In this document: positions 22,996 through 39,230 of the stretch, in pieces
How positions within the stretch are numbered: the stretch's first letter is position 1
Layout of the letters: each line of letters opens with the position of its first letter
Origin: an uncultured Rhodospirillales bacterium
GTDB lineage: Bacteria > Pseudomonadota > Alphaproteobacteria > Rhodospirillales > UBA2165
Assembly (NCBI GenBank): GCA_905614355.1
Contig: CAJQSN010000015.1
Span: forward strand, 22,325 to 86,324
DNA: 64,000 bases
Direction: 5' to 3'
Notes under the pieces: generated by a model
Database searches by the model: none
What the model was told of the DNA's origin: nothing
What the model saw: the letters and a program-made list of their open reading frames with translations, nothing else
Translations under genes and position numbers: made by a program

Positions 22996-23105
22996 CTTTT
23001 TAATTTTCGGCACAGTCGTAATAATATTTCTCCTTAAGCCTAAACAATACATTTAGTTTCAAAATTCTTCATTGCACCCTACAATTAATCACTTTAGATA
23101 CAGGG

Positions 23106-23210: not shown

Positions 23211-24821
23211 ATGGCAACGACACTAGATTTTCCAAGACATTCAGAAAAGCAAATAGAACAATTTCGTTCTTCTGGCTATTGGAATGATGACACCTTGTCG
23301 ACCTATATTGAAAAATGGTCTAACAAAACTCCTAAAAAAACTGCAATTGTAGCGCCAGATCGCGAGTTAACATATTCAGAGTGGCACTCCTCATCTTTAA
23401 AATTTGCAAATGCCTTAATTAGCCTTGGTCTCAAGCGCGGCGATGTAATTGCTATTCAATCTCCTAACACACCTGAGTTTCTCATTGCATATATCGGCAT
23501 TGCTCTAATGGGCGGAGTGATGTGCACTCTGCACATGCCATATCGAGCGGGTGAAATGGCACCACTAATGAACCATGGAAACACTAAAGCTATTATCTGT
23601 TCACAAGGCGATAACAAATATGACGCCCCACAAACTATGGAAGGATTAAAAGAAAGAGTTCCTACACTTGAGCATATTATAGTAATCGGAGAGCCCCAGA
23701 ATGGGCAGAAAAACTTCAAAAAGTTAATCGAGAATGCAACCTCCTCGCCCATTAAAGACCCGCCAATTGCAAGCGATCCATGTATTCTTTGCTTTACCTC
23801 AGGCACCTCAGCCTCACCCAAAGGTGTGGTTCGAACCTACGAGACATTAACGGCCAACGCTCGGATATATTCACCGACTATTCAACTGACCGCTGATGAT
23901 CGAGTAATGGTAGCGCCACCATTTACGCATGTTTTTGGCCTTACCTGTGCAACGCTAGCTCTTTGCTGGGGGTCTACAAATGTATTGATGCCATTGTTTA
24001 CGCCAGAACTTTATACAGACCGCTTAATCAATGCTAAGCCGAATATACTTTTTTCAGCACCCGCTCACGTTGCAGCATCAATCAAGGCAGGACTGCTAGA
24101 TGACGTCGACTTATCATCCCTTAAAGAAGTAGTAATAGCTGGCTCGGTTTGCCCTCCCGAAGTCGCTGCCGATTTAGAACGGAGAATGCCTAATGGACGT
24201 TCTGGCCAATTATTCGGTATGACTGAAACAATATTAATAATGCAAACGCCGTTAAATGAGCGTCCAGAAATACGCCATTCTAGTACAGGGCGTAAAACAA
24301 AAGGCATCGATATTCGAATCACTAATCCTCTCGACGATACAGAAGTAGCCACTGGCGAAGAAGGAGAATTACTTCTTCGTGGCTACACGATTATGGCAGG
24401 ATATTTAAATAATGAGGCTGCAAATAAAGCTGCCTTTACGTCAGATGGATATTTTAGATCAGGGGATTTGGCAACATGTGACGTAGATGGAAATGTAATT
24501 ATAACCGGCCGCGTAAAAGATGTAATAAATAGAGGTGGTATTAAAATTAATCCAACAGATATTGAAAATATCCTTCAGGCTCATCCCGGTATTATTTTAG
24601 CAGCACTAGTGCCAATGCACGATGACATTCTTGGCGAGCGAATCTGTGTATTCATTACACTTTCTCCAAAAGCCTCAATCACATTTGAAGAAATTACAAG
24701 TTATCTTGGACAAAATGGAATCGCCAAAATGCGCTGGCCTGAACGGCTTGAGATTATTGATGAAATGCCGATGACCCCAACACGAAAAATACAAAAAGGT
24801 GAATTAATAAAATTGTTATAA
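23211..24821 (+). CDS. AMP-dependent aryl/alicyclic-carboxylate--CoA ligase
   Basis: 536 aa. AMP-binding motif FTSGTSASPKGV, GEEGELLLRG, GDLA...DG...ITGRVKD. The N-terminus resembles EntE/AliA-type ligases. Confidence 0.8.
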   Translation: MATTLDFPRHSEKQIEQFRSSGYWNDDTLSTYIEKWSNKTPKKTAIVAPDRELTYSEWHSSSLKFANALISLGLKRGDVIAIQSPNTPEFLIAYIGIALMGGVMCTLHMPYRAGEMAPLMNHGNTKAIICSQGDNKYDAPQTMEGLKERVPTLEHIIVIGEPQNGQKNFKKLIENATSSPIKDPPIASDPCILCFTSGTSASPKGVVRTYETLTANARIYSPTIQLTADDRVMVAPPFTHVFGLTCATLALCWGSTNVLMPLFTPELYTDRLINAKPNILFSAPAHVAASIKAGLLDDVDLSSLKEVVIAGSVCPPEVAADLERRMPNGRSGQLFGMTETILIMQTPLNERPEIRHSSTGRKTKGIDIRITNPLDDTEVATGEEGELLLRGYTIMAGYLNNEAANKAAFTSDGYFRSGDLATCDVDGNVIITGRVKDVINRGGIKINPTDIENILQAHPGIILAALVPMHDDILGERICVFITLSPKASITFEEITSYLGQNGIAKMRWPERLEIIDEMPMTPTRKIQKGELIKLL

Positions 24822-24892: not shown

Positions 24893-25906
24893 GTGAGAGG
24901 ACTTATTATTCATGAATTTGGACCAATTAGTAGCCATCAGGTTGAAGATTTCGATGATCCAATAGCAAGTAAAGGTGAGGTGATCGTTGATGTTCATGCT
25001 ATAGGCCTAAATTTCCCAGATACACTAATGATTCAAGGTAAATATCAAATGTGGCCGGAGCGACCCTTCGTCCCTGGCCGCGATGCAGCGGGTATTATTT
25101 CAGCTGTTGGAGAGGGTGTTAAAAATTTAAAAATAGGGGATCGTGTCGCCTGTCAGGTACTATGGGGGGCATTTGGCAATAAGGTATGTGCTCCGGAGCC
25201 TAAAGTATTCAAACTCCCAGACGAAATAGATTTTGTGAGCGCAGCCGGCATGATTACAACATACAATACCGCCCATGTTGCGGTTTATGAACGTGGTAAT
25301 GTGCAGTCTGGTGAAACTGTTTTTATAACTGGTGCATCAGGCGGCGTTGGACTTGCTATGGTTGAAATGGCAAAGGCGCGTGGTGCAACCGTGCTTGCTG
25401 GCGCTACCTCTAAAGAGAAAGGGGATCTCGCAATTGCACACGGGGCAGATCACTGGATAGATCTAAGCGTAGAGGATCTACATCAAGGCGTAAAAAATCA
25501 GGTATTAGCTGCAATCGGTGAAAATTTATGTCAGGCGGTTTTCGATGTAGTTGGCGGTAAAGTTTTTGATGCTGCAATGCGATGTCTCTCATATCGAGGG
25601 AGAATGGTCATCGTTGGTTTTGCAACCATGGATATTTCAATGCCAAAAGGTCATCATATACTCCTAAAAAATATTTCAATTATAGGCGCGCCACTCGACA
25701 TCAACTTTAAAAAATCCATTGACGTTATTCATCGAGGGATAAAAATTATATTTGAACTTTGGAAAACAGGTAAAATAAAGCCTGAAGTTGGCCAGATTTT
25801 GCCATTAGACAAAATTACTACGGCAATACAATCTATTGAAGACCGTACTGCGCTTGGTAAGATTGTTATAACAACTGATAACTTTATCTTACCGACTAAT
25901 AAATGA
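24893..25906 (+). CDS. NADPH:quinone oxidoreductase-like medium-chain dehydrogenase/reductase
   Basis: 337 aa. GLNFPD, GETVFITGASGGVGLAMVEMAK. GTG start preceded by AAGGAG. Confidence 0.8.
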   Translation: MRGLIIHEFGPISSHQVEDFDDPIASKGEVIVDVHAIGLNFPDTLMIQGKYQMWPERPFVPGRDAAGIISAVGEGVKNLKIGDRVACQVLWGAFGNKVCAPEPKVFKLPDEIDFVSAAGMITTYNTAHVAVYERGNVQSGETVFITGASGGVGLAMVEMAKARGATVLAGATSKEKGDLAIAHGADHWIDLSVEDLHQGVKNQVLAAIGENLCQAVFDVVGGKVFDAAMRCLSYRGRMVIVGFATMDISMPKGHHILLKNISIIGAPLDINFKKSIDVIHRGIKIIFELWKTGKIKPEVGQILPLDKITTAIQSIEDRTALGKIVITTDNFILPTNK

Positions 25907-25946: not shown

Positions 25947-26405
25947 CTATTGGCGTGTAAATTCAATTTCCCCGTCTGGCAGTAGATAGAGTACAAGTGC
26001 CGTACCGTTTTTTACCGTTGGATTGTGTGCAGAATTCGGCTCGTAAACAATCCACCCTGCACCATGGTTGTCAAATTCTGCATTACCATTAATTGGCATA
26101 ATTAAATCTATTTCGCCCTTTGGATGGCGATGGTGTGGACCGACGACATCTGTCATGTGAACGACGTCAACGCTATATCCATTGACTTCTTTAATGACCC
26201 TCCCAAATTTAATACCACCAAATTCTTGCCCACACATCCACCCTTCCTGCATACCCGCTTCACAGGTTTGTTGAATCTCGGTAAATACCTCGCTACCTGG
26301 AGGGTACAAATTATTTAAATCTGAAGCTAAATCCATATTTAACGGTTTTTCTGCAATTGCTATGGTAACTTTATGAATAGCTGCCGTAAAAGTCTCTTTA
26401 TCCAT
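25947..26405 (-). CDS. small cupin-like protein (DUF4863 / hydroxylaminobenzoate-lyase-like), tentative
   Basis: 152 aa. HHRHPKGEIDL...G.W.VY.P.S.H.P pattern. TAATG overlap with the upstream thioesterase gene. Confidence 0.45.
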   Translation of the reverse strand: MDKETFTAAIHKVTIAIAEKPLNMDLASDLNNLYPPGSEVFTEIQQTCEAGMQEGWMCGQEFGGIKFGRVIKEVNGYSVDVVHMTDVVGPHHRHPKGEIDLIMPINGNAEFDNHGAGWIVYEPNSAHNPTVKNGTALVLYLLPDGEIEFTRQ

Positions 26406-26857
26406 TAATTTATTCCTGTTTTTTCATGAAATTTATTGCAAGAAAGTTGATAGGCTTCAATTTTTTTCCGAAATTCTATCGAAATCGGAATCGCTTTAAA
26501 ACTATCCACATCTACAAAACAAACTACTTGGTCAACATGAAAGCAATGGTTCTTTTTAGAATCAAAACCATCAAAAACATAGTTTAAAGAAGCCTTTCCA
26601 AGTTTTTTTATTTCGAGTGAAATGTCTATATACTCACTTGTCTTCATGGGATACATGAATTCACAACTCATTTTAACTGTAGGGGTGTCTATTTTAAGAT
26701 CATCTCGAAGCGTCATAGAGGTATAGCCAAACATTTCAATTAGCCACTCCTCAACAGTTTCCAGCGCGTAGTGAAAGACACGGGGTGTATAAAGAATTCC
26801 TGCTGGATCACTGTCTCCCCAAAGTATGCGCCGACGTGTGGTAAATGGAATAGTCAT
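26405..26857 (-). CDS. hotdog-fold acyl-CoA thioesterase (4HBT type)
   Basis: RRILWGDSDPAGILYTPRVFHYALETVEEW is a typical 4HBT motif. Start taken at MTIPF; the upstream in-frame extension to 27013 looks non-coding. Confidence 0.7.
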   Translation of the reverse strand: MTIPFTTRRRILWGDSDPAGILYTPRVFHYALETVEEWLIEMFGYTSMTLRDDLKIDTPTVKMSCEFMYPMKTSEYIDISLEIKKLGKASLNYVFDGFDSKKNHCFHVDQVVCFVDVDSFKAIPISIEFRKKIEAYQLSCNKFHEKTGIN

Positions 26858-27032
26858 GGGATATGATTGAATAACCTTATGTTGTAATATGGAAACATCT
26901 AAAATTACGGCTAAATATTTATGGCGAAATATGTTGTGTCCAACATGCTCCTCAAATATAATTTTCAGTACTATATAAACACTAAATAATATGCATTTTA
27001 TCAAATAAAGCAATGGTTAGGAAACGCAAATA

Positions 27033-29204
27033 ATGGATGGTGGTACAGCACTAGCGCGAGTTACAAATACGGGAGAGCGGTCCTTTGGCTCTGAAATTAA
27101 AAAACTTACCCTAGGTGCCGGTGAAGAATTCCATGGAGAGGGCATCCTTGCAGTAACCAAAGCTTTATTGCAATCAGGCATAACATATGTTGGCGGGTAC
27201 CCTGGCGCTCCTATGTCTCATTTAATTGATGTGCTCGCTGATGCGAGTGAAGAAATTCTTGAACCGATGGGAATAACTTACGAACAGGCTGCCTCTGAAG
27301 CCGGAGCAGCCGCACTTCTCTCGGCATCTATTCATTATCCTATTCGAGGCGCTGTTACCTGGAAATCAGTTGTAGGGACCAACGTTGCCTCGGATGCACT
27401 CTCCAATTTAGCATCAACCGGGGTGACTGGTGGCTCACTTATTATTTTGGGTGACGATTATGGTGAAGGCTCAAGTATTATGCAGGAACGAACCTACACC
27501 TTTGCCATGAAATCTTCCATACCGTTAGTCGACCCGCGTTATGACATGGAGCGCATGGTTGAACTAACAGAACAGTGCTTTGGTATTTCAGAAGCATCCA
27601 ATATGCCAGTATTTCTAAACATGAGAATCAGAGCTTGTCACTTAACTGGCACATTTATAGCCAAAGATAATAAGATAGCCAAATTTAACTTCAACAATCC
27701 CATTCCTGAGCAGAAATACGATGTAACTAAAATTGTTTTACCACCAGCTTCTTATCAGCACGAAATAGCAAAGTTTGAAACTCGTTTACCGGCAGCAGCG
27801 AATTTTGCTATAGAAAATAAAATCAACGAACTTTTCGAAGGTTCGCAGGAAAATAAAAAAATTGGCATTATTACTCAAGGTGGAACATATACGGTTGTCA
27901 TGCGTGCTCTCCGTCGATTGGGAGTTGCAGATGCATACGGGAACAGTGATGTAGAAATCTACTGTATGAATTTAGTCTATCCATTGATCCAGAGTGAGCT
28001 AATTGATTTCATGGTAAATAAGGAGAGTGTTTTAGTAGTAGAGGAGGGTAATCCTAACTACATAGAAACCCAAATCGCCGAAATTGCACATACCAATGTA
28101 ATTAAATGCCGTGTTCATGGTAAAGACATGTTACCTATGGCAGGGGAATACGTCTCCAACGTTGTTCGTGAAGGAATTGCACAATATCTGGCTGAAGAAG
28201 GCTCAACAGAAATTAGTAAACTAGCTTTAGATAAAAATACCGAAATCATTGCGAAAACAAAAAAGGCTCAGTCGCATTTGCCAAGCCCTATGCCACCCCG
28301 ACCACCGTCATTCTGCACGGGTTGTCCGGAGAGGCCTATCATGGCTGCCTTAAAACTGCTAATGAAAGAACGCGGTAAATTTCACATATCAATGGATATC
28401 GGTTGTAATCTTTTTGGCTCCTTACCCCCCTTCAATGTCGGCAATACAGTCCTCGGGTATGGCCTCAGCTTGGCGAGCAGTGGGGCCATTGGACCCGCAC
28501 TTGGTCAACCTAACGTCGCCATTATGGGGGATGGTGGTTTTTGGCATAACGGGTTCACATCCGGCGTCGTAAATGCTCAGTGGAATAAATACGATTCTGT
28601 TTTAGTCATACTCGACAATGGCTATGCGGCAGCCACAGGCCAACATAAGTTACCATCAACAGGATCAACACCACGCGGCCTTGAATCATTATTATCAATT
28701 GAAAATGCCCTCAAAGGAGTCGGTATCACTTGGGTCAAACATGTTGATTCGTACAGTCTAGAAAATACCATTGACGTACTTAGGGAAGCTATGGAGGCTC
28801 GTAGCGAGGGCCTTAGGGTCGTGATATCAAACAACGAATGCATGCTAGCTAAACAACGGCGTATCAAACCAGAAAAAGCGGCTAACCTTAAAGCCGGAAA
28901 TACTGTAATCCATGAAAAATTTGGCGTGGATGAAGAAGTCTGTACTGGCGACCATTCTTGTATGCGGTTGAGCGGATGTCCATCACTTACCTTAAAACAA
29001 AGTAAGGATCCTCTAAAAGAGACGCCTGTTGCTCACGTTGATGAGAGTTGCGTCGCCTGCGGTAATTGTGGTGAAGTAGCACACGCAGCCCAACTATGCC
29101 CATCATTTTATAAAGCAACAGCCATCCAGAATGCAGGAATAATTCGCAAATATGCATCATCAATAAATCGTTCTTTTCTCAATCTAATGGGAAGTGTTAA
29201 ATGA
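27033..29204 (+). CDS. iorA: indolepyruvate/aryl-2-oxoacid:ferredoxin oxidoreductase alpha subunit (ThDP and Fe-S binding)
   Basis: 723 aa. GYPGAP N-terminal motif, ThDP motif GDGGFWHNG...LDNG, and a C-terminal ferredoxin-like Cys cluster (CTGDHSC...GCPS, CVACGNCGE...CPS). Confidence 0.8.
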   Translation: MDGGTALARVTNTGERSFGSEIKKLTLGAGEEFHGEGILAVTKALLQSGITYVGGYPGAPMSHLIDVLADASEEILEPMGITYEQAASEAGAAALLSASIHYPIRGAVTWKSVVGTNVASDALSNLASTGVTGGSLIILGDDYGEGSSIMQERTYTFAMKSSIPLVDPRYDMERMVELTEQCFGISEASNMPVFLNMRIRACHLTGTFIAKDNKIAKFNFNNPIPEQKYDVTKIVLPPASYQHEIAKFETRLPAAANFAIENKINELFEGSQENKKIGIITQGGTYTVVMRALRRLGVADAYGNSDVEIYCMNLVYPLIQSELIDFMVNKESVLVVEEGNPNYIETQIAEIAHTNVIKCRVHGKDMLPMAGEYVSNVVREGIAQYLAEEGSTEISKLALDKNTEIIAKTKKAQSHLPSPMPPRPPSFCTGCPERPIMAALKLLMKERGKFHISMDIGCNLFGSLPPFNVGNTVLGYGLSLASSGAIGPALGQPNVAIMGDGGFWHNGFTSGVVNAQWNKYDSVLVILDNGYAAATGQHKLPSTGSTPRGLESLLSIENALKGVGITWVKHVDSYSLENTIDVLREAMEARSEGLRVVISNNECMLAKQRRIKPEKAANLKAGNTVIHEKFGVDEEVCTGDHSCMRLSGCPSLTLKQSKDPLKETPVAHVDESCVACGNCGEVAHAAQLCPSFYKATAIQNAGIIRKYASSINRSFLNLMGSVK

Positions 29205-30634
29205 ACGAAATCACAACAACTACACCTGATCGCCCAATTTGTGTTTTACTAGGCGCACTTGGTGGCCAGGGTGGGGGCGTTTTGATCGACTGGTTGGTTA
29301 ATTCCGCCAAAAGAGCCGGCTATCCAGCGCAAGCGACATCAACGCCTGGGGTAGCACAAAGAACCGGAGCTACAACCTACTACTTTGAATTATTTCCAGA
29401 GAAGAACCCTATTGAAAGCCCTATTTTTACATTTTTTCCTGCGTCAGATGATTTAGATATAATGATTGCGATGGAACCTACAGAGGCTGGTCGTGCAATA
29501 GAGCGAGGGTTCGTAACAGATTTTACCACCGTCATAACAACAACTGAGCGAGTTTATTCTACAGCAGAAAAAGTATCGGCAGGGGATGGGCGCATTGACG
29601 TTATTCCTGTTATTGACGCTATCAAAAAAGCAGCGAAAAAATTAATACAGCTTGATGTGTCTGCCCTATCCGCCGAAACATCTGCCAGAGGAAACGCCAT
29701 TGCATTTGGAGCTGTTATTGGAAGCGGCATTCTACCTTTAACTCCAGAAGACTGCAGAGCGGCTATTACCGCAAAAGGTGTTGCGGTTGGGAGTAATTTA
29801 GCTGGTTTTGATATAGGACTTAAAGCGGCAAAAGAGGGTATCCAACCAAGCAGGCAAGATGATGACCTCACGTTTGACAAGGCACCGAACGAATTTGATG
29901 GAGAAATCTCAATATTCCCCGAGACTACTCGCGAAATTATTTCCCATGGAATTGTTAGATTGATTGACTACCAAGGCCCTAATTATGCTCGGGAATATCT
30001 TAAACGTTTAAAACGAATTTTAGATATTGATACGGATCAAACCAAAAAGCTTACCTCCGAAATGGCTCGCCATCTGGCCCGCTGGATGAGCTTTGAAGAC
30101 GTTATTCGTGTTGCCCAATTAAAAACGCGACCAGGGCGACTTTCTCGGATCCGAAACGAACTAAAAGTAGGCCCAAATACGCCATTAAAACTAACAGACT
30201 ATTTCAAACCGGGACGCGATGAAGTTTTAGGAGTTATCCCCAAAAGTTTGAGTTGGTTGGTACCATCGCTGAGCAAAGGAATAGCTCTCCATATACCGAC
30301 AGGATCAGCTTTTGGATTTGCCATGTTAAAATTTTTATCTATTCTAAAGCCATTGCGAACTAAAACTAGCCAGTATATTGAAGAACAAAAGGCGATTGAT
30401 CAATGGCTAAATGCAGTGATCAAAGCTAAATCTCAGGACTATTATTTGGCATGCCAAACGGCTAACCTTGCAATTCTAGCTAGGGGTTATGGCGACGTGC
30501 GCAAAACAGGATTGAAAAAACTCGATTTGTTATTTATCGATTGGAATAAAAAATTAGAAAATGACCATTCTGGTATGACAGCCCAAGTAGACCAAATGAT
30601 TTTACTTGCACATTCCAATCCCGATGTAATTTAA
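29201..30634 (+). CDS. iorB: indolepyruvate oxidoreductase beta-subunit family protein (long proteobacterial form)
   Basis: 477 aa. N-terminal GALGGQGGGVL pyruvate-ferredoxin-oxidoreductase gamma-like domain. ATGA overlap with iorA. Confidence 0.75.
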   Translation: MNEITTTTPDRPICVLLGALGGQGGGVLIDWLVNSAKRAGYPAQATSTPGVAQRTGATTYYFELFPEKNPIESPIFTFFPASDDLDIMIAMEPTEAGRAIERGFVTDFTTVITTTERVYSTAEKVSAGDGRIDVIPVIDAIKKAAKKLIQLDVSALSAETSARGNAIAFGAVIGSGILPLTPEDCRAAITAKGVAVGSNLAGFDIGLKAAKEGIQPSRQDDDLTFDKAPNEFDGEISIFPETTREIISHGIVRLIDYQGPNYAREYLKRLKRILDIDTDQTKKLTSEMARHLARWMSFEDVIRVAQLKTRPGRLSRIRNELKVGPNTPLKLTDYFKPGRDEVLGVIPKSLSWLVPSLSKGIALHIPTGSAFGFAMLKFLSILKPLRTKTSQYIEEQKAIDQWLNAVIKAKSQDYYLACQTANLAILARGYGDVRKTGLKKLDLLFIDWNKKLENDHSGMTAQVDQMILLAHSNPDVI

Positions 30635-30654
30635 GATTTCTCTAGGAAAGTATT

Positions 30655-31155
30655 ATGGGTGAAAAACGAAATAAAACGCATCTTCATTGCACGGTGAATG
30701 GTAAAGAACGTGATAACTTTGTACCAGACAACATGCTTCTAGTTGATTATCTCCGCGAAGATCTGGACCTCACGGGCACTAAAATTGGTTGCGATGGTGG
30801 TGAATGCGGTTGCTGCACTGTTCTTATAGGAGGCGCACCTCAACATGCCTGCTTGCGCCTGGCAGCAACTTGTCAAGAGCTAGACATCGAGACTATTGAG
30901 TCTCTGTCAGATGCCAGCCGCCTCTCCGCCCTACAACGCGGCTTCCACGAAAAACTTGGTGCGCAATGCGGTTTTTGTACTCCGGGCATGATTATGGCGG
31001 CTGAAGGTTTGCTTAGACAAAATCCTAATCCAAGCGAAGAACAAATCCGTCAAGGGCTAGCCTCTAATATCTGTCGCTGTACAGGCTACATAAAAATTAT
31101 TGAATCGGTTCAATTTGCAATTGGTGAATTAAAATTGGCGGGGAACGCGACATGA
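30655..31155 (+). CDS. hcrC: (2Fe-2S)-binding subunit, 4-hydroxybenzoyl-CoA reductase gamma-like
   Basis: 166 aa. GCDGGECGCCTV and CGFCTPGM...CRCTGY motifs. Symbol assigned from operon context with the HcrB-type beta subunit. Confidence 0.7.
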   Translation: MGEKRNKTHLHCTVNGKERDNFVPDNMLLVDYLREDLDLTGTKIGCDGGECGCCTVLIGGAPQHACLRLAATCQELDIETIESLSDASRLSALQRGFHEKLGAQCGFCTPGMIMAAEGLLRQNPNPSEEQIRQGLASNICRCTGYIKIIESVQFAIGELKLAGNAT

Positions 31156-33467
31156 ACCAAATAAAGCCGACCAAATCTATTGGAATTCGAAAACCATTGG
31201 TAGATGGTCCCGAAAAAGTTTCTGGCAAAGCACTTTATTCAGCCGATTTTATCCCAGCCGACTGTTTAGTAGGACGCATATTTAGAAGTCCTATTTCTCA
31301 CGGTGAGATAATTGAGGTCGATGTTTCAAAAGCTGAAGCATTGCCCGGTGTGAAAGCCGTTATCACTGGTGATGTGACAGATGAGACGTTTGGTGTTTTG
31401 CCAATCGCCAGGTTTGAATACCCACTAGCCCGCGATAAAGTGCGCTATAAAGGTGAGCCAGTAGCTTGTGTGGCAGCAATTGACGCCGAAACGGCTCAAA
31501 AGGCAATCGAACTCATTAAATTCAATTATAAAGAGCTGCCTGCATACTTTACCTCAAAAGATGCAATGGCCAAGGGATCCGTCAATATACACGACCACCG
31601 TGAAGGTAATATCGAACGCGATGTGGATTTTGATCTTGGAGAAACTGATGGTGGGCTTAAAGCTGCCGACTTAATTATGGAAGAAACCTACAATTGCGCG
31701 GAAGTAGCCCAAGTACAAAGTGAACCCCATGCGGCAATAGCTGAATACGACGCAATACGCGACTTTATGACTGTGCGTGCAAGCACGCAAGTTCCATATT
31801 ATGGACATAAAATGCTGGCAAAAACTCTCAAAATGCAAGAGAGCAAAGTTCGCATGATTAAGCCATTTGTAGGTGGAGGATTTGGGTGTCGTACGGAGTG
31901 TTTAAATGTTGAACTCATTTGTGCTCTCGCGGCACGCGCTGCGCAAGGTACAGTCCGTATTGTAACAAGCCGCGAGGAGACATTTATTACCCATCGCGGT
32001 AGGCCAGAGACTGATGTGGAAATTAAAATTGGTGTTAAAAAAAATGGCTTAATCACTGCTGTTGATTTTAAAGCTATCCAGCGTGGCGGAGCATATAGTG
32101 GCTATGGAGTTGTAACTATTCTCTATGCTGGTGGCCTGATGTTTGGTGTCTACAATTTGCCTGCTGTACGATATCGTGGACTTCGCGTTCTTACCAACAC
32201 CCCGCCGCCTGGTGCAATGCGTGGGCATGGAACGACGGACGTACGCTATGCATTTGAAAGCCTACTCGATAAAATTGCGAATGAATTGGGCATTGATGCA
32301 ATTGAAATACGGCGAAGAAATCTTTTAAAAGCTCCTAAGTATGAAACTCTAAACGAGATGTTTATTAATTCCTACGGACTGCCTGAATGCCTGGATTGGG
32401 TCGAAGAGAAAAGCGGTTGGAAAGAACGTAAAGGAAAATTAGGCCCAAACAGAGGTCTAGGGGTAGCTTGCGCACACTATCCAAGCGGTGCATCGAAACC
32501 CGTAAACTGGACTGGGGAACCCCACGCCACCGTCCATCTAAAACTTGACTGGGATGGATCAATAACACTTTTGACGGGCGCTCCGGAAATTGGGCAAGGC
32601 TCCACAACAATGGCAACCCAATGTGCTGCTGAAATACTTGGTCTGGATATGTCACGCTTTCAAAGCCTTACTAGCGATAGTAAGTTAACACCAAAAGATA
32701 ACGGTTCTTATTCCTCTCGCGTCACTTATATGGTAGGCAACGCATCTATTGATGCCGCCACTAATTTAAAGAATATTTTAATTGAAGCCGCTGCGCGTAA
32801 ATTAGAGGTAAAGCCGGAAGATATTGAATGCCTCGGAGAAATATACCGCGCTGGCACACAGGATGATGGGCTTAACTTCAATGAAGTTGTGCAGGCAGCC
32901 CTTGAAGGCACTGGAACAATTACTGTTAAAGGTAACTATGATACTCTGCCGGAATCTTGGGGTACAAAAAAATACCGAGGTGGTGCTATCAGTGGCAGTA
33001 TGGCATACGCCTATGCCGCTCAAGTGGTTGAAGTCAGTATTGATCCAGATACAGCGGAGATTACAGTGGAAAAGGTTTGGGCCGCTCAGGATGTTGGTAA
33101 AGCTTTGAACCCTCTAGCTGTAGAGGGACAAATCGAGGGTTCAGTCTGGATGGGAATGGGACAAGCTATTTCTGAAGGTACACAATATGTTAACGGCTTG
33201 GGCATCACCAACAGCATGCTGGATTATAGGGTCCCTACAATTATCGAATCGCCGCCAATCGAAGTTGGAATTATCGAAAGCATTGATCCACATGGGCCAT
33301 TTGGAGCCAAAGAGGCGGGAGAAACTTCCTTAGTTGCATTCATTCCAGCGTTGACCAACGCTATTGCAGATGCAATTGGGGTTCGCCCAATTGACCTACC
33401 GGTTACCCCTGACAGGCTCCTACAATTGATGGAAGACTACCAAAAAACAGAAAAGGCTGCAGAATAA
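31152..33467 (+). CDS. hcrA: molybdopterin-binding subunit, 4-hydroxybenzoyl-CoA reductase alpha-like (XDH family)
   Basis: 771 aa. GGGFGCR, GAMRGHG, VEGQIEGS and GAKEAGE motifs of the XDH family. ATGA overlap with the gamma subunit. Confidence 0.7.
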   Translation: MNQIKPTKSIGIRKPLVDGPEKVSGKALYSADFIPADCLVGRIFRSPISHGEIIEVDVSKAEALPGVKAVITGDVTDETFGVLPIARFEYPLARDKVRYKGEPVACVAAIDAETAQKAIELIKFNYKELPAYFTSKDAMAKGSVNIHDHREGNIERDVDFDLGETDGGLKAADLIMEETYNCAEVAQVQSEPHAAIAEYDAIRDFMTVRASTQVPYYGHKMLAKTLKMQESKVRMIKPFVGGGFGCRTECLNVELICALAARAAQGTVRIVTSREETFITHRGRPETDVEIKIGVKKNGLITAVDFKAIQRGGAYSGYGVVTILYAGGLMFGVYNLPAVRYRGLRVLTNTPPPGAMRGHGTTDVRYAFESLLDKIANELGIDAIEIRRRNLLKAPKYETLNEMFINSYGLPECLDWVEEKSGWKERKGKLGPNRGLGVACAHYPSGASKPVNWTGEPHATVHLKLDWDGSITLLTGAPEIGQGSTTMATQCAAEILGLDMSRFQSLTSDSKLTPKDNGSYSSRVTYMVGNASIDAATNLKNILIEAAARKLEVKPEDIECLGEIYRAGTQDDGLNFNEVVQAALEGTGTITVKGNYDTLPESWGTKKYRGGAISGSMAYAYAAQVVEVSIDPDTAEITVEKVWAAQDVGKALNPLAVEGQIEGSVWMGMGQAISEGTQYVNGLGITNSMLDYRVPTIIESPPIEVGIIESIDPHGPFGAKEAGETSLVAFIPALTNAIADAIGVRPIDLPVTPDRLLQLMEDYQKTEKAAE

Positions 33468-34441
33468 TGGAATATATGCCAAACTTCCAACTTCATCGCC
33501 CTGAAACTCCCGAGGAGGCTATAAAGCTACTCAACGAACAACCTGAAGCAAAATTAGTTGCTGGCGGAACAGACATGATAGTCAATGTCCGGCGCGGTAT
33601 TGAACAGCCCAAAAACCTGATTGATCTAAGTTCCATAAATCAGCTAAAAGAAATTACCGAATCTAACGATGGCCTTCGGATTGGGGCTGGAGTAACGCTT
33701 AACAAGGTGGCAACTACGGCCTTAATAAAAAAAGGCTACCCGGCAGTAGCCGAAGCTGCATCATCTGTAGCAGGCGGCACACACCAACAGTATGGGACAC
33801 TTGGGGGTAACCTATGCTTAGATACGCGCTGTTTGTTTTATAATCAAAGTGAATGGTGGCGCCAAAGCAATGACTATTGCATGAAAGAACGAGGAGATGT
33901 GTGTCACGTGGCGCCGGGTGGGAAACGTTGCTTTGCAGCATTCTCTGGGGATGTTGCGCCAGCAATGTTAGTATATACGGCAGAAGTCGAGTTGCTAAGC
34001 TCCAGGGGAATACGACGTATCCCACTAGCTGAAATGTATCAAAATGATGGAATGAACCATTTAACGTTAGCTCCTGATGAATTGGTTAGTGCAGTTCATT
34101 TGCCAAGAACTCTAAATGGAACCCCATCCCGTTATGAAAAAGTGCGTATTCGGGGTTCGATAGACTTTCCATTGGCTGGTGCAGCCGTTCGACTAAAAAT
34201 GAACTGTGGAAAAGTTGAAGACATTTCAATCGCATTGACTGGCGTAAACCCATTTCCCCAAATCATTAAAGGTACGGATGAATATATTGGTAAAGCTCTC
34301 AATGATGAGGGCCTCGACATTTTACGAGACAGTGTTCGTAAACAAGCAAAACCAATGAAAACAACCACGGTGGCCCCATGGTACCGTCGTCGTGTAATTG
34401 GAGCTCTAGCCAGAAAATTAATAAAAGAACTTGCTGCTTAA
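33467..34441 (+). CDS. hcrB: FAD-binding subunit with inserted Cys-rich [4Fe-4S]-type loop, 4-hydroxybenzoyl-CoA reductase beta-like
   Basis: 324 aa. VAGGTDMIVNVR FAD motif. Insertion GNLCLDTRCLFYNQSEWWRQSNDYCMKERGDVCHVAPGGKRCFAAFSGD, with Cys at residues 122/138/146/155. Confidence 0.75.
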   Translation: MEYMPNFQLHRPETPEEAIKLLNEQPEAKLVAGGTDMIVNVRRGIEQPKNLIDLSSINQLKEITESNDGLRIGAGVTLNKVATTALIKKGYPAVAEAASSVAGGTHQQYGTLGGNLCLDTRCLFYNQSEWWRQSNDYCMKERGDVCHVAPGGKRCFAAFSGDVAPAMLVYTAEVELLSSRGIRRIPLAEMYQNDGMNHLTLAPDELVSAVHLPRTLNGTPSRYEKVRIRGSIDFPLAGAAVRLKMNCGKVEDISIALTGVNPFPQIIKGTDEYIGKALNDEGLDILRDSVRKQAKPMKTTTVAPWYRRRVIGALARKLIKELAA

Positions 34442-34513
34442 AAGTTAGGTAGGCTCACTTTAACTAAAAAATGGCATTCATTATAATGGTAATATTCCAA
34501 TAGTTTTCATAAG

Positions 34514-34561
34514 TGTTTGATCACAATTTAGTTTAGACCTAAACTAAATTGTGATCAAACA
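34514..34561. repeat. 48-bp perfect palindrome (23-nt arms, 2-nt centre) between hcrB-like and gcdH
   Basis: TGTTTGATCACAATTTAGTTTAG-ac-CTAAACTAAATTGTGATCAAACA read directly from the sequence. No flanking U-tract. Confidence 0.9.
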
Positions 34562-34588: not shown

Positions 34589-35773
34589 ATGGCAAAAAAA
34601 ATAGAATTTCAATGGGATGACCCTTTTTTCTTCGATGACCAACTAGAAGAAGAGGAACGCCTTGTCCGAGATACGGCGCGCAACTACGCCCAGGAAAAAT
34701 TGATGCCCCGAGTTTTAGAGGCCAATAGACATGAAATCTTCGATCGGGAAATATTTAACGAAATGGGTGAGCTAGGGTTTTTTGGCATTACCCAGCCAGA
34801 GGAATATGGAGGTGCTAACCTCAATTATGTATGTTATGGCCTAGTAAATCGGGAAGTGGAAAAAATAGACTCTGGCTACCGTTCTATGATGTCTGTTCAA
34901 TCATCCCTAGTAATGCACCCAATTTACAGCTACGGCAGCGAAGAACAAAAGAAAAAATATCTGCCCAAACTTTCGACGGGTGAGTGGATTGGTTGCTTTG
35001 GTTTAACGGAACCTGATCATGGTTCAGATCCTGGTGGAATGACAACACGAGCTCAGAAAAAAGATGGTGGGTATATTATAACCGGTAATAAAATGTGGAT
35101 TTCAAATTCACCGGTAGCAGATGTCTTTATCGTTTGGGCTAAGTTAGAAGGCGTTATCAGGGGGTTTATCCTTGAAAAAGGAATGAAGGGTTTAAGTGCA
35201 CCAAAAATAGAAGGCAAATTTTCACTCCGTACGTCCATTACTGGCGAAATTGTAATGGATAATGTACCTGTGCCAGGCGAAAATATACTACCAAACGTTT
35301 CCGGTCTGGGGGGGCCATTTGGTTGTCTCAACAAAGCCCGTTTTGGTATTTCATGGGGAACAATGGGTGCCGCAGAGTTTTGCTGGCATGCAGCAAGACA
35401 ATACACGCTAGACAGAAAACAATTTGGCCGGCCATTAGCTGCTAATCAGCTTATTCAAAAAAAACTTGCTGACATGCAAACTGAAATTACATTGGGCCTA
35501 CAAGGTGTACTGCGAATTGCAAGACTTATGGACCAAGACCGTTGCCCTCCAGAGGATATCTCTATGATGAAGAGGAACAATGCGGGTAAAGCGCTAGATA
35601 TAGCCAGAATGTCTAGAGATATGCATGGTGGCAATGGGATTGTCGATGAATTTCACGTTATCAGGCACCTGATGAACCTTGAAACTGTTAATACATATGA
35701 AGGTACTCATGATGTTCACGCTCTTATATTGGGAAGAGCCCAAACAGGTTTACAAGCCTTCTTTCCAGAATAA
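34589..35773 (+). CDS. gcdH: glutaryl-CoA dehydrogenase
   Basis: 394 aa. An acyl-CoA dehydrogenase with the GcdH-typical N-terminus ([29 protein letters not shown]) and [14 protein letters not shown]. Confidence 0.8.
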
Positions 35774-36125: not shown

Positions 36126-36905
36126 ATGACACAATCAACTAACCTTCCACTTATCGGTGTACCCACATCAATCATGAAAATACCCGGTACAAATTTTACG
36201 TCTCATGTCAGCGGTCAGCGTTATATAACATCGGTTAATAATTTTTCCAAATGTATTGCTGTCCAGATACCCTCTATGGGTAAAAAATATGACTACACCA
36301 ATTTCCTTGAACGCTTTGATGGCATTTTATTAACGGGCGGAAGAGCTAATATTGAACCTCATCATTATGGAGGTCTACCATTCCCTCCAGAGGAACCAAT
36401 TGATCCAGACCGAGATGGCACCGTCCTCCAAATTATTCCAACCTGTATTACTGCAGGAATCCCTTTACTTGGCATTTGCCGGGGCTTACAAGAAATTAAT
36501 GTCGCGATGGGTGGCTCGTTACATTACCGTATCAACCAAATACCTGGAAAAAATGACCATCGCATGCCAAGAGGAGATGACGTCACTGAAGAAGATATTT
36601 TTAAATTGCGTCACTCAGTTACTCTTACTCCTAGCAACTTATTTCAAAAAATGGTGGCTAAGGATAAAATTCTAGTTAATACTTTGCATGGTCAAGGTGT
36701 AGACCGATTAGGAGACGGCCTTATTGTCCAGGCAGTTTCGGACGATAATGTGATAGAAGGTATTAGTATCAAGGACCACCCAAACTTTGCGGCAGCAGTA
36801 CAATGGCACACTGAATTTCACCCAGAGCGAGAAGAACACACCCTATCTCGAAAACTCTACCAAGCCTTTGGAAGAGCTGCTAAAAATAGGATGCAAAGTA
36901 GGTAA
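36126..36905 (+). CDS. class I glutamine amidotransferase-like, gamma-glutamyl-GABA hydrolase (PuuD/peptidase C26) family
   Basis: 259 aa. GGRANIEPHHYG, nucleophile elbow GICRGLQEINVAMGGSL, and WHTEFHPE near the C-terminus. Confidence 0.75.
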   Translation: MTQSTNLPLIGVPTSIMKIPGTNFTSHVSGQRYITSVNNFSKCIAVQIPSMGKKYDYTNFLERFDGILLTGGRANIEPHHYGGLPFPPEEPIDPDRDGTVLQIIPTCITAGIPLLGICRGLQEINVAMGGSLHYRINQIPGKNDHRMPRGDDVTEEDIFKLRHSVTLTPSNLFQKMVAKDKILVNTLHGQGVDRLGDGLIVQAVSDDNVIEGISIKDHPNFAAAVQWHTEFHPEREEHTLSRKLYQAFGRAAKNRMQSR

Positions 36906-36970
36906 GGTATTCTCTCAAATTAAGAAATGACCAAAATTATTATCAAGCCAAATCCAAATAGAGCTAAGCT

Positions 36971-37477
36971 GTGCATAAAATAGTTATTACCTTGCTCGTA
37001 TTTTTAATATCGTACGATGCAGAGAGTTCAGAACCTTTGCTTCAGCCTTATGGAGTAATATTTGGTCAAAAATTTGATCGAAATCAACATAAAACTATTG
37101 CCCGACGCGGTAATGTGAGGTCAGTTGAACTAAAAACGACAAACCGCCCGGACGATACAGAAAAATTATTAGCTGAAATTTGTGATGATTATGGTCTACA
37201 AGTCATAACATGGCGAAGCCACATTCGCTCAGCATCCTCTGCTTTAACTAGTCATAACGAAATTCTAGAAAAAATAAAACTTAATTTTGGTGCACCAAAA
37301 ATAAAACATAAAACAGCTTTTTGGATTTCCAACGAGATTAATATTGTTGTTAAGATACGTCGCAAAAATAATATTTACCAAAATCAGATTCGTTACTTGG
37401 GACCGGAAAATAAACCCTGCTTTGAAAAATTTATTACACAGCTCGAGAAAAACCACCCGTCCCTTGAGTTAAAATAA
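36971..37477 (+). CDS. hypothetical secreted protein
   Basis: 168-aa ORF with a GTG start and a hydrophobic N-terminal signal-like segment (HKIVITLLVFLISYDAESS). No recognisable family. Confidence 0.45.
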   Translation: MHKIVITLLVFLISYDAESSEPLLQPYGVIFGQKFDRNQHKTIARRGNVRSVELKTTNRPDDTEKLLAEICDDYGLQVITWRSHIRSASSALTSHNEILEKIKLNFGAPKIKHKTAFWISNEINIVVKIRRKNNIYQNQIRYLGPENKPCFEKFITQLEKNHPSLELK

Positions 37478-37600
37478 AAGAATAAATAATTATTGAAAAT
37501 TCCGACATTATTCAAAATATAAAATAAATATAAAATAAATATAGATTTCTATCTTAATTTTGCTAAAAGCACTTATTAAGTCGCCCGTCTCTAACTTAAT

Positions 37601-37999
37601 TTATTTACTAACCATCGGACGAACCCGTTTGGTAAGAATGCCAATTAAAGCGCGTAGAAATGGATCAGCACTCTCTAATTTCTCCTCGAAAACTCTGCGT
37701 GAAATTACTAATGCTTCTGTTGATACTCCAACCGCCTGCGCTGATGCCATCCGCTCGCCATCGTCGATTAAAGCCATTTCACCAAAAATTCCGCCGACAT
37801 TGACTATTCCTATTGGAATCGTTTTACCATCATCGTGCCTAGATATTTGGACCATTCCATCTAACAAGACGAAAGCTGTATCACCTGATTCACCTTCACG
37901 AAAAATAAATTCCCCATCCTTATAAGTCCCTTTTCTTGAGCCGGCTGCAATCCTTGCTCTCAGCTTAGTAGGACCCTCATCTTTTTCATCGTCGCTCAT
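37601..37999 (-). CDS. stand-alone cyclic-nucleotide-binding domain protein
   Basis: 132 aa. cNMP-binding beta-roll motif GEFIFREGESGDTAFVLLDGMV...GGIFGEMALIDDGERMASA, with no DNA-binding or effector domain. Confidence 0.75.
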   Translation of the reverse strand: MSDDEKDEGPTKLRARIAAGSRKGTYKDGEFIFREGESGDTAFVLLDGMVQISRHDDGKTIPIGIVNVGGIFGEMALIDDGERMASAQAVGVSTEALVISRRVFEEKLESADPFLRALIGILTKRVRPMVSK

Positions 38000-38087
38000 A
38001 GCTGCCCAAATTCTTTCTTAGACTTAATAAATTTTTTTAAATTAACAACTTAACATTGACCGATTTCTATAATAATTACTTTTTTTA

Positions 38088-39191: not shown

Positions 39192-39230
39192 TAATAATAA
39201 TCAGAAAGCAATCTTTCACTATATTTAAAA

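Follow-up and report, generated by a model that had tools for sequence, protein, structure and literature searches.

Introduction

4-Hydroxybenzoyl-CoA reductase (Hcr or 4-HBCR) requires a thioester para to the hydroxyl group. In Thauera, its known electron partner is ferredoxin rather than NAD(P)H, and the reduced ferredoxin for aromatic reductases is provided by a 2-oxoglutarate:ferredoxin oxidoreductase (KorAB). The Thauera enzyme has three subunits, encoded in the order C-A-B; in its structure (1RM6) an extra [4Fe-4S] cluster adjoins the FAD, and it has been described as an enzyme with inverted electron flow. An alphaproteobacterial 4-HBCR is encoded by hbaBCD of Rhodopseudomonas palustris, accompanied by hbaA for a 4-hydroxybenzoate-CoA ligase. 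The gut-bacterial Ucdh/Uxd enzymes of the xanthine-oxidase family also dehydroxylate phenols reductively, para to an electron-withdrawing group, and Uxd incorporates an electron-input module dedicated to it (4Fe-4S with a FAD/NAD domain); however, they are about 33% identical to 4-HBCR, are driven by NADH and not by a 2-oxoacid:ferredoxin oxidoreductase (OFOR), and act on urolithins instead of CoA thioesters.

In the 4-hydroxyphenylacetate route, 4-hydroxyphenylglyoxylate is converted to 4-hydroxybenzoyl-CoA and this to benzoyl-CoA. The oxidation of arylglyoxylates is performed in Azoarcus evansii, Thauera and Aromatoleum by PadEFGHI, an enzyme of five subunits with a PadH-type NAD module. The canonical gene order is padBCD-padEFGHI-padJ/paaK, and in Thauera padE-I and paaK form one operon. 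For organisms without padEFGHI, the step from phenylglyoxylate to benzoyl-CoA has been called unclear in the literature. A simpler OFOR, IorAB of Pyrococcus furiosus, has an alpha subunit with TPP, Fe-S and ferredoxin-like domains and a beta subunit with the POR (domain III) fold.

Here we describe an operon that encodes both an OFOR and a 4-HBCR, in a stretch of 64,000 nucleotides (the window) from an uncultured Rhodospirillales bacterium. The preliminary description of this DNA knew of no characterised operon joining the two enzyme systems, and likewise we found no paper describing such an arrangement.

Results

The coordinates and junctions of the five plus-strand genes (Table 1) were all confirmed in the DNA, and the gene labels proposed before agree with the domain content found in profile searches. 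ATGA overlaps join iorA to iorB (GTTAAATGAACG) and hcrC to hcrA (ACATGAAC), both read from the DNA, while between iorB and hcrC lies a spacer of 20 nt that contains an AGGAAAG ribosome-binding site, and hcrA and hcrB overlap by 1 nt (TAATG). Within the iorA-hcrB unit, no terminator-like sites above chance were observed on the plus strand. A plus-strand promoter-like site at 26962-26990 is a consensus match only, of a kind not commoner than in shuffled sequence; 34 bp of the surrounding divergent intergenic region are 88% conserved in the related locus L001.

Table 1. The operon and its surroundings in the window.
Feature	Position	Strand	Size	Remarks
PnbB-family (PF16155) small cupin-like protein	25947..26405	-		Pfam E=2.9e-47; divergent from operon
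4HBT_2-type acyl-CoA thioesterase	26405..26860	-	~151 aa	likely start Met52
Divergent intergenic region	26861..27032			AGGAAAC ribosome-binding site ahead of iorA
iorA (IorA, OFOR alpha)	27033..29204	+	723 aa	
iorB (IorB, OFOR beta)	29201..30634	+	477 aa	
hcrC (HcrC, 4-HBCR gamma subunit)	30655..31155	+	166 aa	
hcrA (HcrA, 4-HBCR alpha subunit)	31152..33467	+	771 aa	Mo cofactor, substrate site
hcrB (HcrB, 4-HBCR beta subunit)	33467..34441	+	324 aa	FAD, extra [4Fe-4S] loop
Perfect hairpin	34514..34561	+	23-nt arms	between hcrB and gcdH
gcdH (glutaryl-CoA dehydrogenase, decarboxylating type)	34589..35773	+		

As judged from its sequence, HcrCAB is a genuine 4-HBCR, including the ferredoxin-accepting [4Fe-4S] loop, which bears out its earlier assignment as a low-potential Mo reductase. 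HcrA matches the Thauera subunit 1rm6_A over residues 9-761 (E=8.5e-291) and passes the 4-HBCR alpha model TIGR03194 with 1098 bits (cut-off 994.55; next family 509; NCBIfam). Its identity to the alpha subunit of the Thauera enzyme is about 58-63% (58% in alignment A1, with 320+ columns invariant), and identity within its own clade is 75-94%. HcrB matches 1rm6_B (E=9e-83) and passes TIGR03195 (428 bits, cut-off 404.55); its FAD_binding_5 match at 6-214 spans 209 residues against a 170-position profile, an insertion of about 40 aa, and Cys122/138/146/155 align with the extra [4Fe-4S] loop of Thauera HcrB, all four cysteines being conserved. The other XDH-type FAD subunit of the window (12794-13636) has no such insertion. 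For HcrC the best PDB match is 1rm6_C (E=1.9e-59), with all eight cysteines of the two [2Fe-2S] clusters aligned, and the TIGR03193 score lies just under the cut-off (230 bits against 257.8). All the Fe-S ligands of the Thauera enzyme are conserved.

IorAB is by sequence a two-subunit, DUF6537-type OFOR with its own Fe-S domain, showing the superfamily features throughout. IorA has a TPP_enzyme_C match (Pfam), the TPP motif GDGG-x26-N at 499 and proximal [4Fe-4S] cysteines at 428/431/458/603. The ferredoxin-like domain attributed to it before is present at the C-terminus (Cys637/643/649/673/676/679/689; Cx5Cx5CP plus CxxCxxCx9CP); its first motif is degenerate or non-canonical (Cx5Cx5CP), so that the second cluster is uncertain. 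The TPP motif, the four proximal and the seven C-terminal cysteines are all invariant among 10 sequences (alignment A2). IorB contains POR (domain III) and DUF6537 (Pfam) and passes PRK08312 (437 bits, cut-off 348; NCBIfam), a loose model named "subunit beta family protein". An indolepyruvate:ferredoxin oxidoreductase sensu stricto was considered and rejected: IorA reached 306.8 bits with IOR_alpha (cut-off 650.9), and IorB 19-37 bits with the IOR_beta models (cut-offs 205-348), failing every equivalog. Hence the name IorAB denotes here an IOR-like OFOR, not the true indolepyruvate enzyme. A PDB sequence search with IorA gave no match, and for the DUF6537-type family we found no solved structure by this search, nor any paper or biochemistry. 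This "indolepyruvate oxidoreductase family" is widespread in aerobic Proteobacteria, model roseobacters included, where it is found among genes for the catabolism of aromatic compounds or 2-hydroxyacids; in Ruegeria, members with 50-54% identity adjoin a StyD-like phenylacetaldehyde dehydrogenase.

Upstream of the operon, the thioesterase ORF extends to 27013 from a TTG (202 aa), with the Pfam 4HBT_2/4HBT match at residues 64-184; in L082, L165-L167 and the P0164 contig, homologues of 144-161 aa are likewise divergent and lie upstream of iorA. The PnbB-family protein has no PDB relative. Its gene lies beside hcr in L001-L007, L165-L167, L085, L170 and L171 and is absent from the hcr-less loci L081-L084; RidA genes also accompany hcr in the clade of the window. 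Downstream, the hairpin (RNA fold -31.9 kcal/mol, z=-7.2) is not conserved in L001, L002 or L005, and a promoter-like site precedes it at 34460-34487. The gcdH gene, whose product matches PDB 3eom (E=5.6e-190) and the human enzyme 1sir (E=2.9e-177), is probably a transcription unit of its own; copies 78-91% identical lie 3' of hcrB in L001, L002, L005, L007 and L166. No stand-alone ferredoxin of the CxxCxxCxxxCP type was found anywhere in the 64 kb, and the window contains no padBCD, paaK or paa genes and no recognisable source of 4-hydroxyphenylglyoxylate.

The order iorA-iorB-hcrC-hcrA-hcrB is present in at least eight marine Rhodospirillales/"MarineAlpha3" lineages. It is the same in six species-level MAGs (L001-L006) and in L166, with IorA/HcrA identities to the window of 91/93, 85/90, 85/84, 74/82, 75/82, 76/81 and 67/76%, so the two proteins diverge in parallel. 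Five further IorA/HcrA protein pairs come from contigs of equal size within each pair. This shared order shows that the linkage is not sporadic and that the arrangement is more than chance. The adjacency iorAB-hcrC is also kept in two separate lineages (L165 and L167) in which the locus reads IorA-IorB-HcrC-HcrB without hcrA, with an hcrC-hcrB gap of 28-35 bp and the HcrB Cys loop intact, which argues for a functional tie between IorAB and the electron module HcrC/HcrB. L007 carries hcrCAB-gcdH without iorAB, and therefore Hcr can have another electron donor. A benzoate-CoA-ligase-family gene is found near hcr in L166, L007 and L086. Unlike the window, with iorAB upstream and gcdH downstream, the soil loci L024-L080 have no OFOR within 10 kb, and in many of them a CoA-ligase gene directly follows hcrB.

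In a neighbour-joining tree of IorA, drawn without support values, the clade of the window is sister to one with 10 known contexts, and all 10 read FlK - Mo-bisPGD enzyme (~910 aa) - FeS/NrfD - IorA - IorB - PaaK. The padBCD-type Mo enzyme and the PaaK-type ligase are present in L082-L087 and L170-L172; PaaK scores 639 (cut-off 646; NCBIfam), and the label PadBCD rests on architecture and neighbourhood, because NCBIfam holds no PadB model. Lying between padBCD-like genes and paaK, IorAB thus fills the slot of the phenylglyoxylate oxidoreductase padEFGHI. In six of these clusters hcrCAB directly follows paaK, which matches the 4-hydroxyphenylacetate route; four have no hcr (L082-L084, L172). 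In L083 and L084, bcr/had/oah-like genes are accompanied by another OFOR, of KorAB type, which argues that IorAB is not simply a general ferredoxin reducer there, and in L085, a self-contained cluster, IorAB is the only OFOR.

Discussion

Our best reading, for which we see close to an even chance as a whole, is that IorAB is a dedicated, arylglyoxylate-fed generator of reductant for HcrCAB. IorAB would convert 4-hydroxyphenylglyoxylate (4-hydroxybenzoylformate) and CoA to 4-hydroxybenzoyl-CoA, CO2 and two low-potential electrons. These would leave by the proximal [4Fe-4S] cluster of IorA and then its C-terminal ferredoxin-like domain, enter at the extra [4Fe-4S] cluster of HcrB, and pass by FAD and the two [2Fe-2S] clusters of HcrC to the Mo cofactor of HcrA, which would dehydroxylate the 4-hydroxybenzoyl-CoA freshly made by IorAB. 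The net reaction, 4-hydroxyphenylglyoxylate + CoA -> benzoyl-CoA + CO2 + H2O, would be redox-neutral and would proceed without a free ferredoxin pool. A self-contained module of this kind had been one of two options in the preliminary description, and the conserved synteny favours it; the electron transfer from IorA to HcrB is a step that we infer, and it is likely. The arylglyoxylate substrate is more tentative, its chances falling somewhat short of even. It is suggested by the pad-type context of the outgroup (4-hydroxyphenylglyoxylate to 4-hydroxybenzoyl-CoA) and by the para-thioester requirement of Hcr, which an aroyl-CoA product fits and arylacetyl-CoA does not.

As in Thauera, low-potential 2-oxoacid oxidation would be the source of electrons. 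However, the OFOR of the window belongs to another subfamily (IOR-like, DUF6537). Its genes share an operon with hcrCAB under translational coupling, it has a ferredoxin-like domain of its own and no separate ferredoxin gene nearby, and it probably would also make the substrate of Hcr; the host, moreover, is a pelagic marine Rhodospirillales-type bacterium. With PadEFGHI, IorAB would share the reaction (arylglyoxylate + CoA -> aroyl-CoA + CO2 + 2e-) and, in the sister clade, the gene position, but it has two subunits rather than five and no PadH-type NAD module. Since neither IorA nor IorB matches the PadI model NF045766 (NCBIfam), this would be a non-orthologous displacement and not membership, the likeness being positional and functional. 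In comparison with the two-subunit IorAB of P. furiosus, DUF6537 lengthens the beta subunit by about 280 aa, and the genomic context points to arylglyoxylates, not arylpyruvates.

The other earlier option was a funnel from arylpyruvates, in which IorAB makes arylacetyl-CoA from 4-hydroxyphenylpyruvate or phenylpyruvate, its electrons still reduce Hcr, and the 4-hydroxybenzoyl-CoA has another origin, such as 4-hydroxybenzoate activated by a CoA ligase. The IOR-family similarity of IorAB speaks for it, as do the benzoate-CoA-ligase-family genes near hcr and the literature, in which an Aromatoleum "IorAB" is assumed to turn phenylpyruvate into phenylacetyl-CoA, with a similar assumption for Desulfococcus/Desulfobacula. 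The StyD-like dehydrogenase and a thioesterase directly 3' of iorB in Ruegeria fit arylpyruvate at least equally, and pad-type clusters could admit phenylpyruvate via IorAB and phenylacetate via PaaK. Nevertheless, this would leave all 10 otherwise complete pad-type clusters without an enzyme from phenylglyoxylate to benzoyl-CoA, with iorAB lying exactly in the padEFGHI position. Furthermore, arylacetyl-CoA, which is not an Hcr substrate, would find no downstream enzyme in the window, the coupling would need two unrelated substrates at a 1:1 ratio, and the IOR equivalog cut-offs were failed. We therefore consider the funnel unlikely.

Less probable still is that IorAB oxidises a central 2-oxoacid (2-oxoglutarate or pyruvate) purely as a source of reductant. 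The Thauera precedent of KorAB plus ferredoxin, the tightly coupled translation of iorAB and hcrCAB and the lack of a nearby ferredoxin gene would agree with it. On the contrary, the sister clade occurs in hcr-less pad clusters, two with a KorAB-type enzyme next door, so this OFOR lineage appears to act as a pathway enzyme and not as a general reductant generator, and the wider family lies in the catabolic contexts of aerobes mentioned above. Finally, the hcrA-less loci with their intact Cys loop, and the PnbB-family and RidA genes near hcr, both linked to N-containing intermediates in named families, could suggest that the real unit is IorAB-HcrC-HcrB, with a PadH-like flavin/Fe-S exit to NAD(P)+ or another acceptor and HcrA an optional add-on, or that the Hcr of this clade has another para-substituted aroyl-CoA as its substrate, but we give this the lowest chance, because hcrA is full-length and highly conserved in the window and at least seven relatives and passes the 4-HBCR alpha cut-off, the genomes of L165 and L167 could encode it outside the locus, and the Thauera enzyme is not known to use NAD(P)H.

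Returning to the arylglyoxylate-fed module, it may go further, in a joint reading that we regard as improbable: IorAB and HcrC/HcrB would be joined in one physical supercomplex and act as a portable low-potential "wire" that needs no free ferredoxin. Complexed with HcrA, it would perform a one-pot redox-neutral decarboxylative dehydroxylation, and without HcrA, as in L165 and L167, it would serve another acceptor; to this part we give the same small chance. As for the benzoyl-CoA formed, the glutaryl-CoA dehydrogenase gene after hcrB, the lower end of that pathway, points to reductive benzoyl-CoA catabolism, and we infer that benzoyl-CoA would probably be degraded reductively to glutaryl-CoA and taken up by the adjacent GcdH. 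The operon had been thought unexpected in a genome full of oxygen-dependent enzymes; the position of gcdH softens this view, and many oxygenases are likewise encoded in facultative anaerobes such as Thauera and Aromatoleum.

The locus thus offers a candidate dedicated electron donor for 4-HBCR outside the ferredoxin/KorAB paradigm of Thauera, a candidate for the "missing" enzyme from phenylglyoxylate to benzoyl-CoA in organisms without padEFGHI, and a first plausible role for the DUF6537-type family. It also places an oxygen-sensitive dehydroxylase class, and the glutaryl-CoA metabolism linked to it, in a marine lineage that is abundant and is represented here solely by metagenome- and single-cell-derived genomes, which bears on the turnover of phenolic dissolved organic matter in the ocean. 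If the supercomplex were real, its abundance in pelagic and deep-ocean Rhodospirillales and the linked glutaryl-CoA genes would mean that reductive "anaerobic-type" aromatic catabolism is at work in bacteria of a water column that is largely oxygenated.

Results

The preliminary description had read five coupled genes in this region, and both the ORF check and direct reading of the DNA agreed with it: iorA, iorB, hcrC, hcrA and hcrB are plus-strand ORFs, joined by ATGA at 29201, a 20-nt spacer, ATGA at 31152 and TAATG at 33467. The spacer, between iorB and hcrC, contains an AGGAAAG ribosome-binding site. The operon and its surroundings are listed in the table.

Features of the operon region and of its flanks
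Feature	Position	Strand	Remarks
Branched-chain-type ABC transporter	7459-12068		adjoins the second Mo enzyme
Second CoxSML-type (xanthine-oxidase/CO-dehydrogenase) Mo enzyme	12300-16629	-	small Fe-S subunit, FAD subunit, large subunit
Hydantoinase/oxoprolinase A and B pair (687, 567 aa), alpha/beta hydrolase, divergent GntR/FCD regulator	16853-23052		upstream of CoA ligase
CoA ligase	23211-24821		upstream of operon; common to closest relative (L001) only
Quinone-oxidoreductase-like (QOR) gene	24893-25906		upstream of operon; common to closest relative (L001) only
PnbB-family protein (4-hydroxylaminobenzoate-lyase family, PF16155)	25947-26405	-	upstream of operon; member of divergent pair
4HBT_2 thioesterase	26405-26860	-	likely start Met52; divergent pair with PnbB-family gene
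iorA-iorB-hcrC-hcrA-hcrB	27033-34441	+	
Promoter-like site	34460-34487		10/12 match; just before inverted repeat
Perfect inverted repeat	34514-34561		23-nt arms, 2-nt gap; between hcrB and gcdH
Classical glutaryl-CoA dehydrogenase (gcdH)	34589-35773		after hcrB, separate gene; E=5.6e-190 to 3EOM, 2.9e-177 to human enzyme
Peptidase C26/GATase, then arylsulfotransferase-like, second 4HBT_2 thioesterase, 323-aa protein without Pfam match, metallo-beta-lactamase-fold gene	36126-41703		

The three hcr products very probably form a bona fide orthologue of 4-HBCR (4-hydroxybenzoyl-CoA reductase), given their model scores, their matches to the Thauera structure (1RM6) and the conserved cysteines. HcrA matched 1RM6_A with E=8.5e-291; on the alpha equivalog for 4-HBCR in NCBIfam it reached 1098 bits, above the cut-off of 994.55, and the next family scored 509. 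HcrB passed the beta cut-off (428 vs 404.55), matched 1RM6_B with E=9e-83 and carries an insertion of about 40 residues in which Cys122/138/146/155 align with the Thauera loop; in Thauera-type HcrB this loop holds an extra [4Fe-4S] beside FAD, a feature associated with the "inverted electron flow" in 4-HBCR. HcrC retains all eight [2Fe-2S] cysteines and has 1RM6_C as its best match (E=1.9e-59), with a gamma equivalog score slightly below the cut-off (230 vs 258).

IorA and IorB belong to the 2-oxoacid:ferredoxin oxidoreductase (OFOR) superfamily: IorA shows a TPP_enzyme_C match, and IorB has POR and, at its C-terminal end, a DUF6537 domain. The identification of the pair as a curated indolepyruvate oxidoreductase did not hold, since every such equivalog failed (e.g. 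IOR_alpha, 307 vs 651). IorAB did not match the PadI model either and shows no subfamily-level homology to PadEFGHI, and PDB sequence search detected no solved-structure relative of IorA. The TPP motif of IorA is GDGG-x26-N, and Cys 428/431/458/603 are spaced like the proximal [4Fe-4S] set. Seven further cysteines in the C-terminal domain fall into two motifs, a canonical CxxCxxC...CP and a degenerate Cx5Cx5CP; in an alignment with ten relatives, at identities down to 65%, all eleven cysteines are invariant. Because these C-terminal motifs are invariant, the earlier proposal that IorA has its own ferredoxin-like domain stands, with an atypical second cluster. No stand-alone canonical ferredoxin motif was present in the six-frame translation of the 64-kb window.

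Synteny was analyzed from both halves of the operon. From the Hcr side, HcrA was searched in one genome per species with a query alignment that included Thauera, and the best 80 of 586 relatives were kept (L001-L080). Among these, L001-L006, whose HcrA is at least 81% identical, are the only loci in which tblastn placed iorA-iorB immediately upstream of hcrCAB. The seventh locus, L007 (HcrA 75%), has the PnbB and thioesterase genes divergent from hcrCAB-gcdH in the same frame, with iorAB missing. In the other 73 loci, mostly from soil Alphaproteobacteria (HcrA 64-69%), hcrCAB stands alone, often with a CoA ligase after it, and no pad genes adjoin hcr in L008-L080, including padEFGHI in the same frame.

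From the IorA side, relatives number in the thousands. Their contexts were taken from the encoding contigs and from metagenome loci matched by an IorA alignment (the best 80 of 578 relatives), and 106 sequences were placed in a neighbour-joining tree. Three layers could be distinguished: a marine clade including the window, a sister clade with pad-type clusters and a large distant family. The survey of five-gene synteny that the preliminary description had suggested found the complete iorAB-hcrCAB in the window, L001-L006 and the marine locus L166. Two separate lineages of the marine clade, L165 (10001-15180) and L167 (2556-7664), carry iorA-iorB-hcrC-hcrB with hcrC/hcrB gaps of 28-35 bp and an intact HcrB [4Fe-4S] Cys loop, and no HcrA match was found in either locus. 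This arrangement would be a Fe-S/flavin electron module placed on an OFOR without its Mo subunit. A further marine member, L081, has iorAB only, without hcr; its aminotransferase, considered as an arylglycine transaminase, is instead an AptA-type omega-aminotransferase.

The sister clade has ten known contexts, on the P0164 contig and in L082-L087 and L170-L172. In each one whose flank is present, the block comprises a FlK-type thioesterase, a molybdopterin protein of the DMSO-reductase family (~910 aa), an Fe-S/NrfD protein, IorA, IorB and a PaaK-type phenylacetate-CoA ligase (639 vs 646 bits on the PaaK model), and in six of the ten hcrCAB lies immediately 3' of paaK. In L085, the best-resolved pad-type cluster, IorAB is the sole OFOR; L083 and L084 adjoin a KorAB-type OFOR and had/oah/dch/bcr-like genes. 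In a Rhodobacterales MAG (L171:1-4800), pad-iorAB-paaK-hcr is directly beside HgmA, FAA hydrolase, GST/isomerase and FAD monooxygenase genes of the aerobic homogentisate pathway; therefore, oxygen-dependent and oxygen-independent hydroxyphenylacetate routes lie side by side there.

The distant layer (at most 55% identity to the window IorA) comes mostly from soil metagenomes and megaplasmids of aerobes, with examples in Ruegeria pomeroyi, Sagittula, Sulfitobacter, Variovorax and Burkholderia. Its contexts are varied, often with aromatic or 2-hydroxyacid genes, and contain no true hcr. On the R. pomeroyi DSS-3 megaplasmid (L168; NC_006569.1 104733-124826), the iorAB-thioesterase-MarR genes have as neighbors a StyD-like aldehyde dehydrogenase gene, a gene for an omega-aminotransferase and one for a gentisate-dioxygenase-like cupin. 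On a Variovorax plasmid (L169), genes for an alpha-hydroxy-acid oxidase and an enolase-superfamily protein come after iorAB; they have a mandelate-pathway look and score in NCBIfam only as generic LldD-like and unassigned enolase-family. These DUF6537-type pairs (~53% identity) are both on megaplasmids of cultured aerobes.

The missing iorAB of L007 was first read as a recent insertion of iorAB elsewhere, a reading disfavoured by the IorA tree, by L165-L167 and by the pad-type contexts; an old iorAB-hcr linkage followed by several losses fits the tree and contexts better.

The neighbors of the operon are partly conserved. The divergent pair of PnbB and thioesterase genes is found beside hcr in L001-L007 and L165-L167. 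The PnbB gene also accompanies hcr in L085, L170 and L171 and is missing from the hcr-less L081-L084; PDB sequence search gave no solved-structure relative of its product. On the 3' side, the first gene looked like a generic acyl-CoA dehydrogenase by Pfam, and its PDB matches identify it as classical glutaryl-CoA dehydrogenase. It is kept 3' of hcrB in L001, L002, L005, L007 and L166. In L167 and L003 its place is taken by a glutaryl-CoA dehydrogenase of the Acd-like, non-decarboxylating type (437 vs 470 bits), and genes for carboxyltransferase, biotin-carrier and OAD_beta subunits, similar to those of glutaconyl-CoA decarboxylase, are present as well. A RidA gene lies between hcrB and gcdH in L166, L007 and L167. 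The peptidase C26/GATase gene is also 3' of the hcr region in L001, L005 and L167, and the four genes after it are syntenic in L005.

The 147-nt spacer after hcrB holds a promoter-like site and a strong hairpin. The latter, the inverted repeat, folds as RNA with -31.9 kcal/mol (z=-7.2), lacks a T-run and has no conserved counterpart in L001, L002 or L005; an operator, an attenuator and a small inserted element are candidate explanations. Promoter and terminator scans of the window gave counts no higher than shuffled expectation.

The G+C content of the operon region (28000-34000) is 44-46%, vs 38-41% in the flanks and most of the window. The other large Mo-enzyme gene, at 14-16 kb, likewise has 46%, so we did not count the difference as a sign of horizontal transfer; constraints on the proteins, and not a recent transfer, may account for it. 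In that second Mo enzyme the FAD subunit lacks the [4Fe-4S] insertion and the large subunit (998 aa) is fused to a CoxG/SRPBCC domain.

The closest HcrA and IorA relatives (75-99% identity) all come from marine metagenomes, MAGs or SAGs, one of them sampled at 3000 m, labelled Rhodospirillales, Rhodospirillaceae or "MarineAlpha3". Otherwise the window looks like DNA of an ordinary aerobic heterotroph: its genes also include those for a 2OG-Fe(II) oxygenase and a fatty-acid hydroxylase, for NadA/NadC and for many ABC transporters.

Discussion

In the pad pathway of Thauera, Azoarcus and Aromatoleum, PadJ/PaaK activates phenylacetate, phenylacetyl-CoA is oxidised by PadBCD to phenylglyoxylate, and PadEFGHI turns the latter into benzoyl-CoA; the genes run padBCD-padEFGHI-padJ, with padE-I and paaK in one operon. 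The sister-clade block reproduces this cluster ("PadBCD" there being a label from architecture), except that in all ten loci iorAB takes the padEFGHI slot. Since iorAB occupies this slot and yet has no PadI-model match, the simplest reading is that the IorAB lineage would be a (4-hydroxy)phenylglyoxylate:acceptor oxidoreductase, a non-orthologous displacement of PadEFGHI. With hcrCAB, such a cluster would encode the complete known pathway by which 4-hydroxyphenylacetate becomes benzoyl-CoA, and the window operon its minimal core, OFOR and dehydroxylase alone.

According to this proposal, IorAB would convert 4-hydroxyphenylglyoxylate and CoA to 4-hydroxybenzoyl-CoA, the Hcr substrate. The oxidative decarboxylation would free two low-potential electrons, and Hcr would consume two through the HcrB [4Fe-4S], so that the net reaction, 4-hydroxyphenylglyoxylate + CoA to benzoyl-CoA + CO2 + H2O, would be redox-neutral. 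Direct wiring, with electrons passing from the IorA Fe-S domain to Hcr, is favoured because the genes are translationally coupled, there is no ferredoxin gene in the window, and iorAB-hcrC-hcrB is kept where hcrA was lost. Judging from the gene arrangement, IorAB is likely the dedicated electron source of HcrCAB, while L007 indicates that Hcr is able to work without a linked IorAB.

The assignment of 4-hydroxyphenylglyoxylate as the IorAB substrate is tentative, and its source is not visible among the genes of the window. An arylpyruvate, the role assumed in the literature for "IorAB" in Aromatoleum and sulfate reducers, suits the Ruegeria context, with its StyD-like dehydrogenase and the thioesterase after iorB, at least as well; for the lineage studied here we regard it as unlikely. 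A central 2-oxoacid is an improbable substrate of the pair. That IorAB-HcrCB forms the primary unit and serves another function seems very improbable.

Regarding the fate of benzoyl-CoA, the reductive benzoyl-CoA pathway ends in glutaryl-CoA, which, to our knowledge, is no intermediate of the aerobic box pathway. Both sets of neighboring genes, gcdH or the Acd-like and decarboxylase-like genes, tie hcr to glutaryl-CoA metabolism. Because these genes adjoin hcr and glutaryl-CoA lies outside the box pathway, a reductive breakdown of benzoyl-CoA in these marine bacteria is hinted at. Within the window there are no box or bcr genes, and no benzoyl-CoA reductase was found.

The superfamily of each half was already known, and the chemistry is that of the anaerobic 4-hydroxyphenylacetate pathway. 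In a full-text literature search, in which absence is not proof, neither an iorAB-hcr operon nor DUF6537 nor a role of IorAB as phenylglyoxylate oxidoreductase was the subject of any paper, in agreement with the earlier remark that no characterised operon was known to join an OFOR and a 4-HBCR. What appears to be new is this operonic fusion, the use of a two-subunit OFOR of the DUF6537 type in the slot of the phenylglyoxylate oxidoreductase, the IorAB-HcrCB variant without hcrA, and the presence of all of them in an abundant pelagic alphaproteobacterial lineage. Ruegeria and Variovorax are tractable hosts for testing the substrate of the DUF6537-type family. The proposal is specific and testable by a simple coupled assay, and it would give a large uncharacterised OFOR family its first function.
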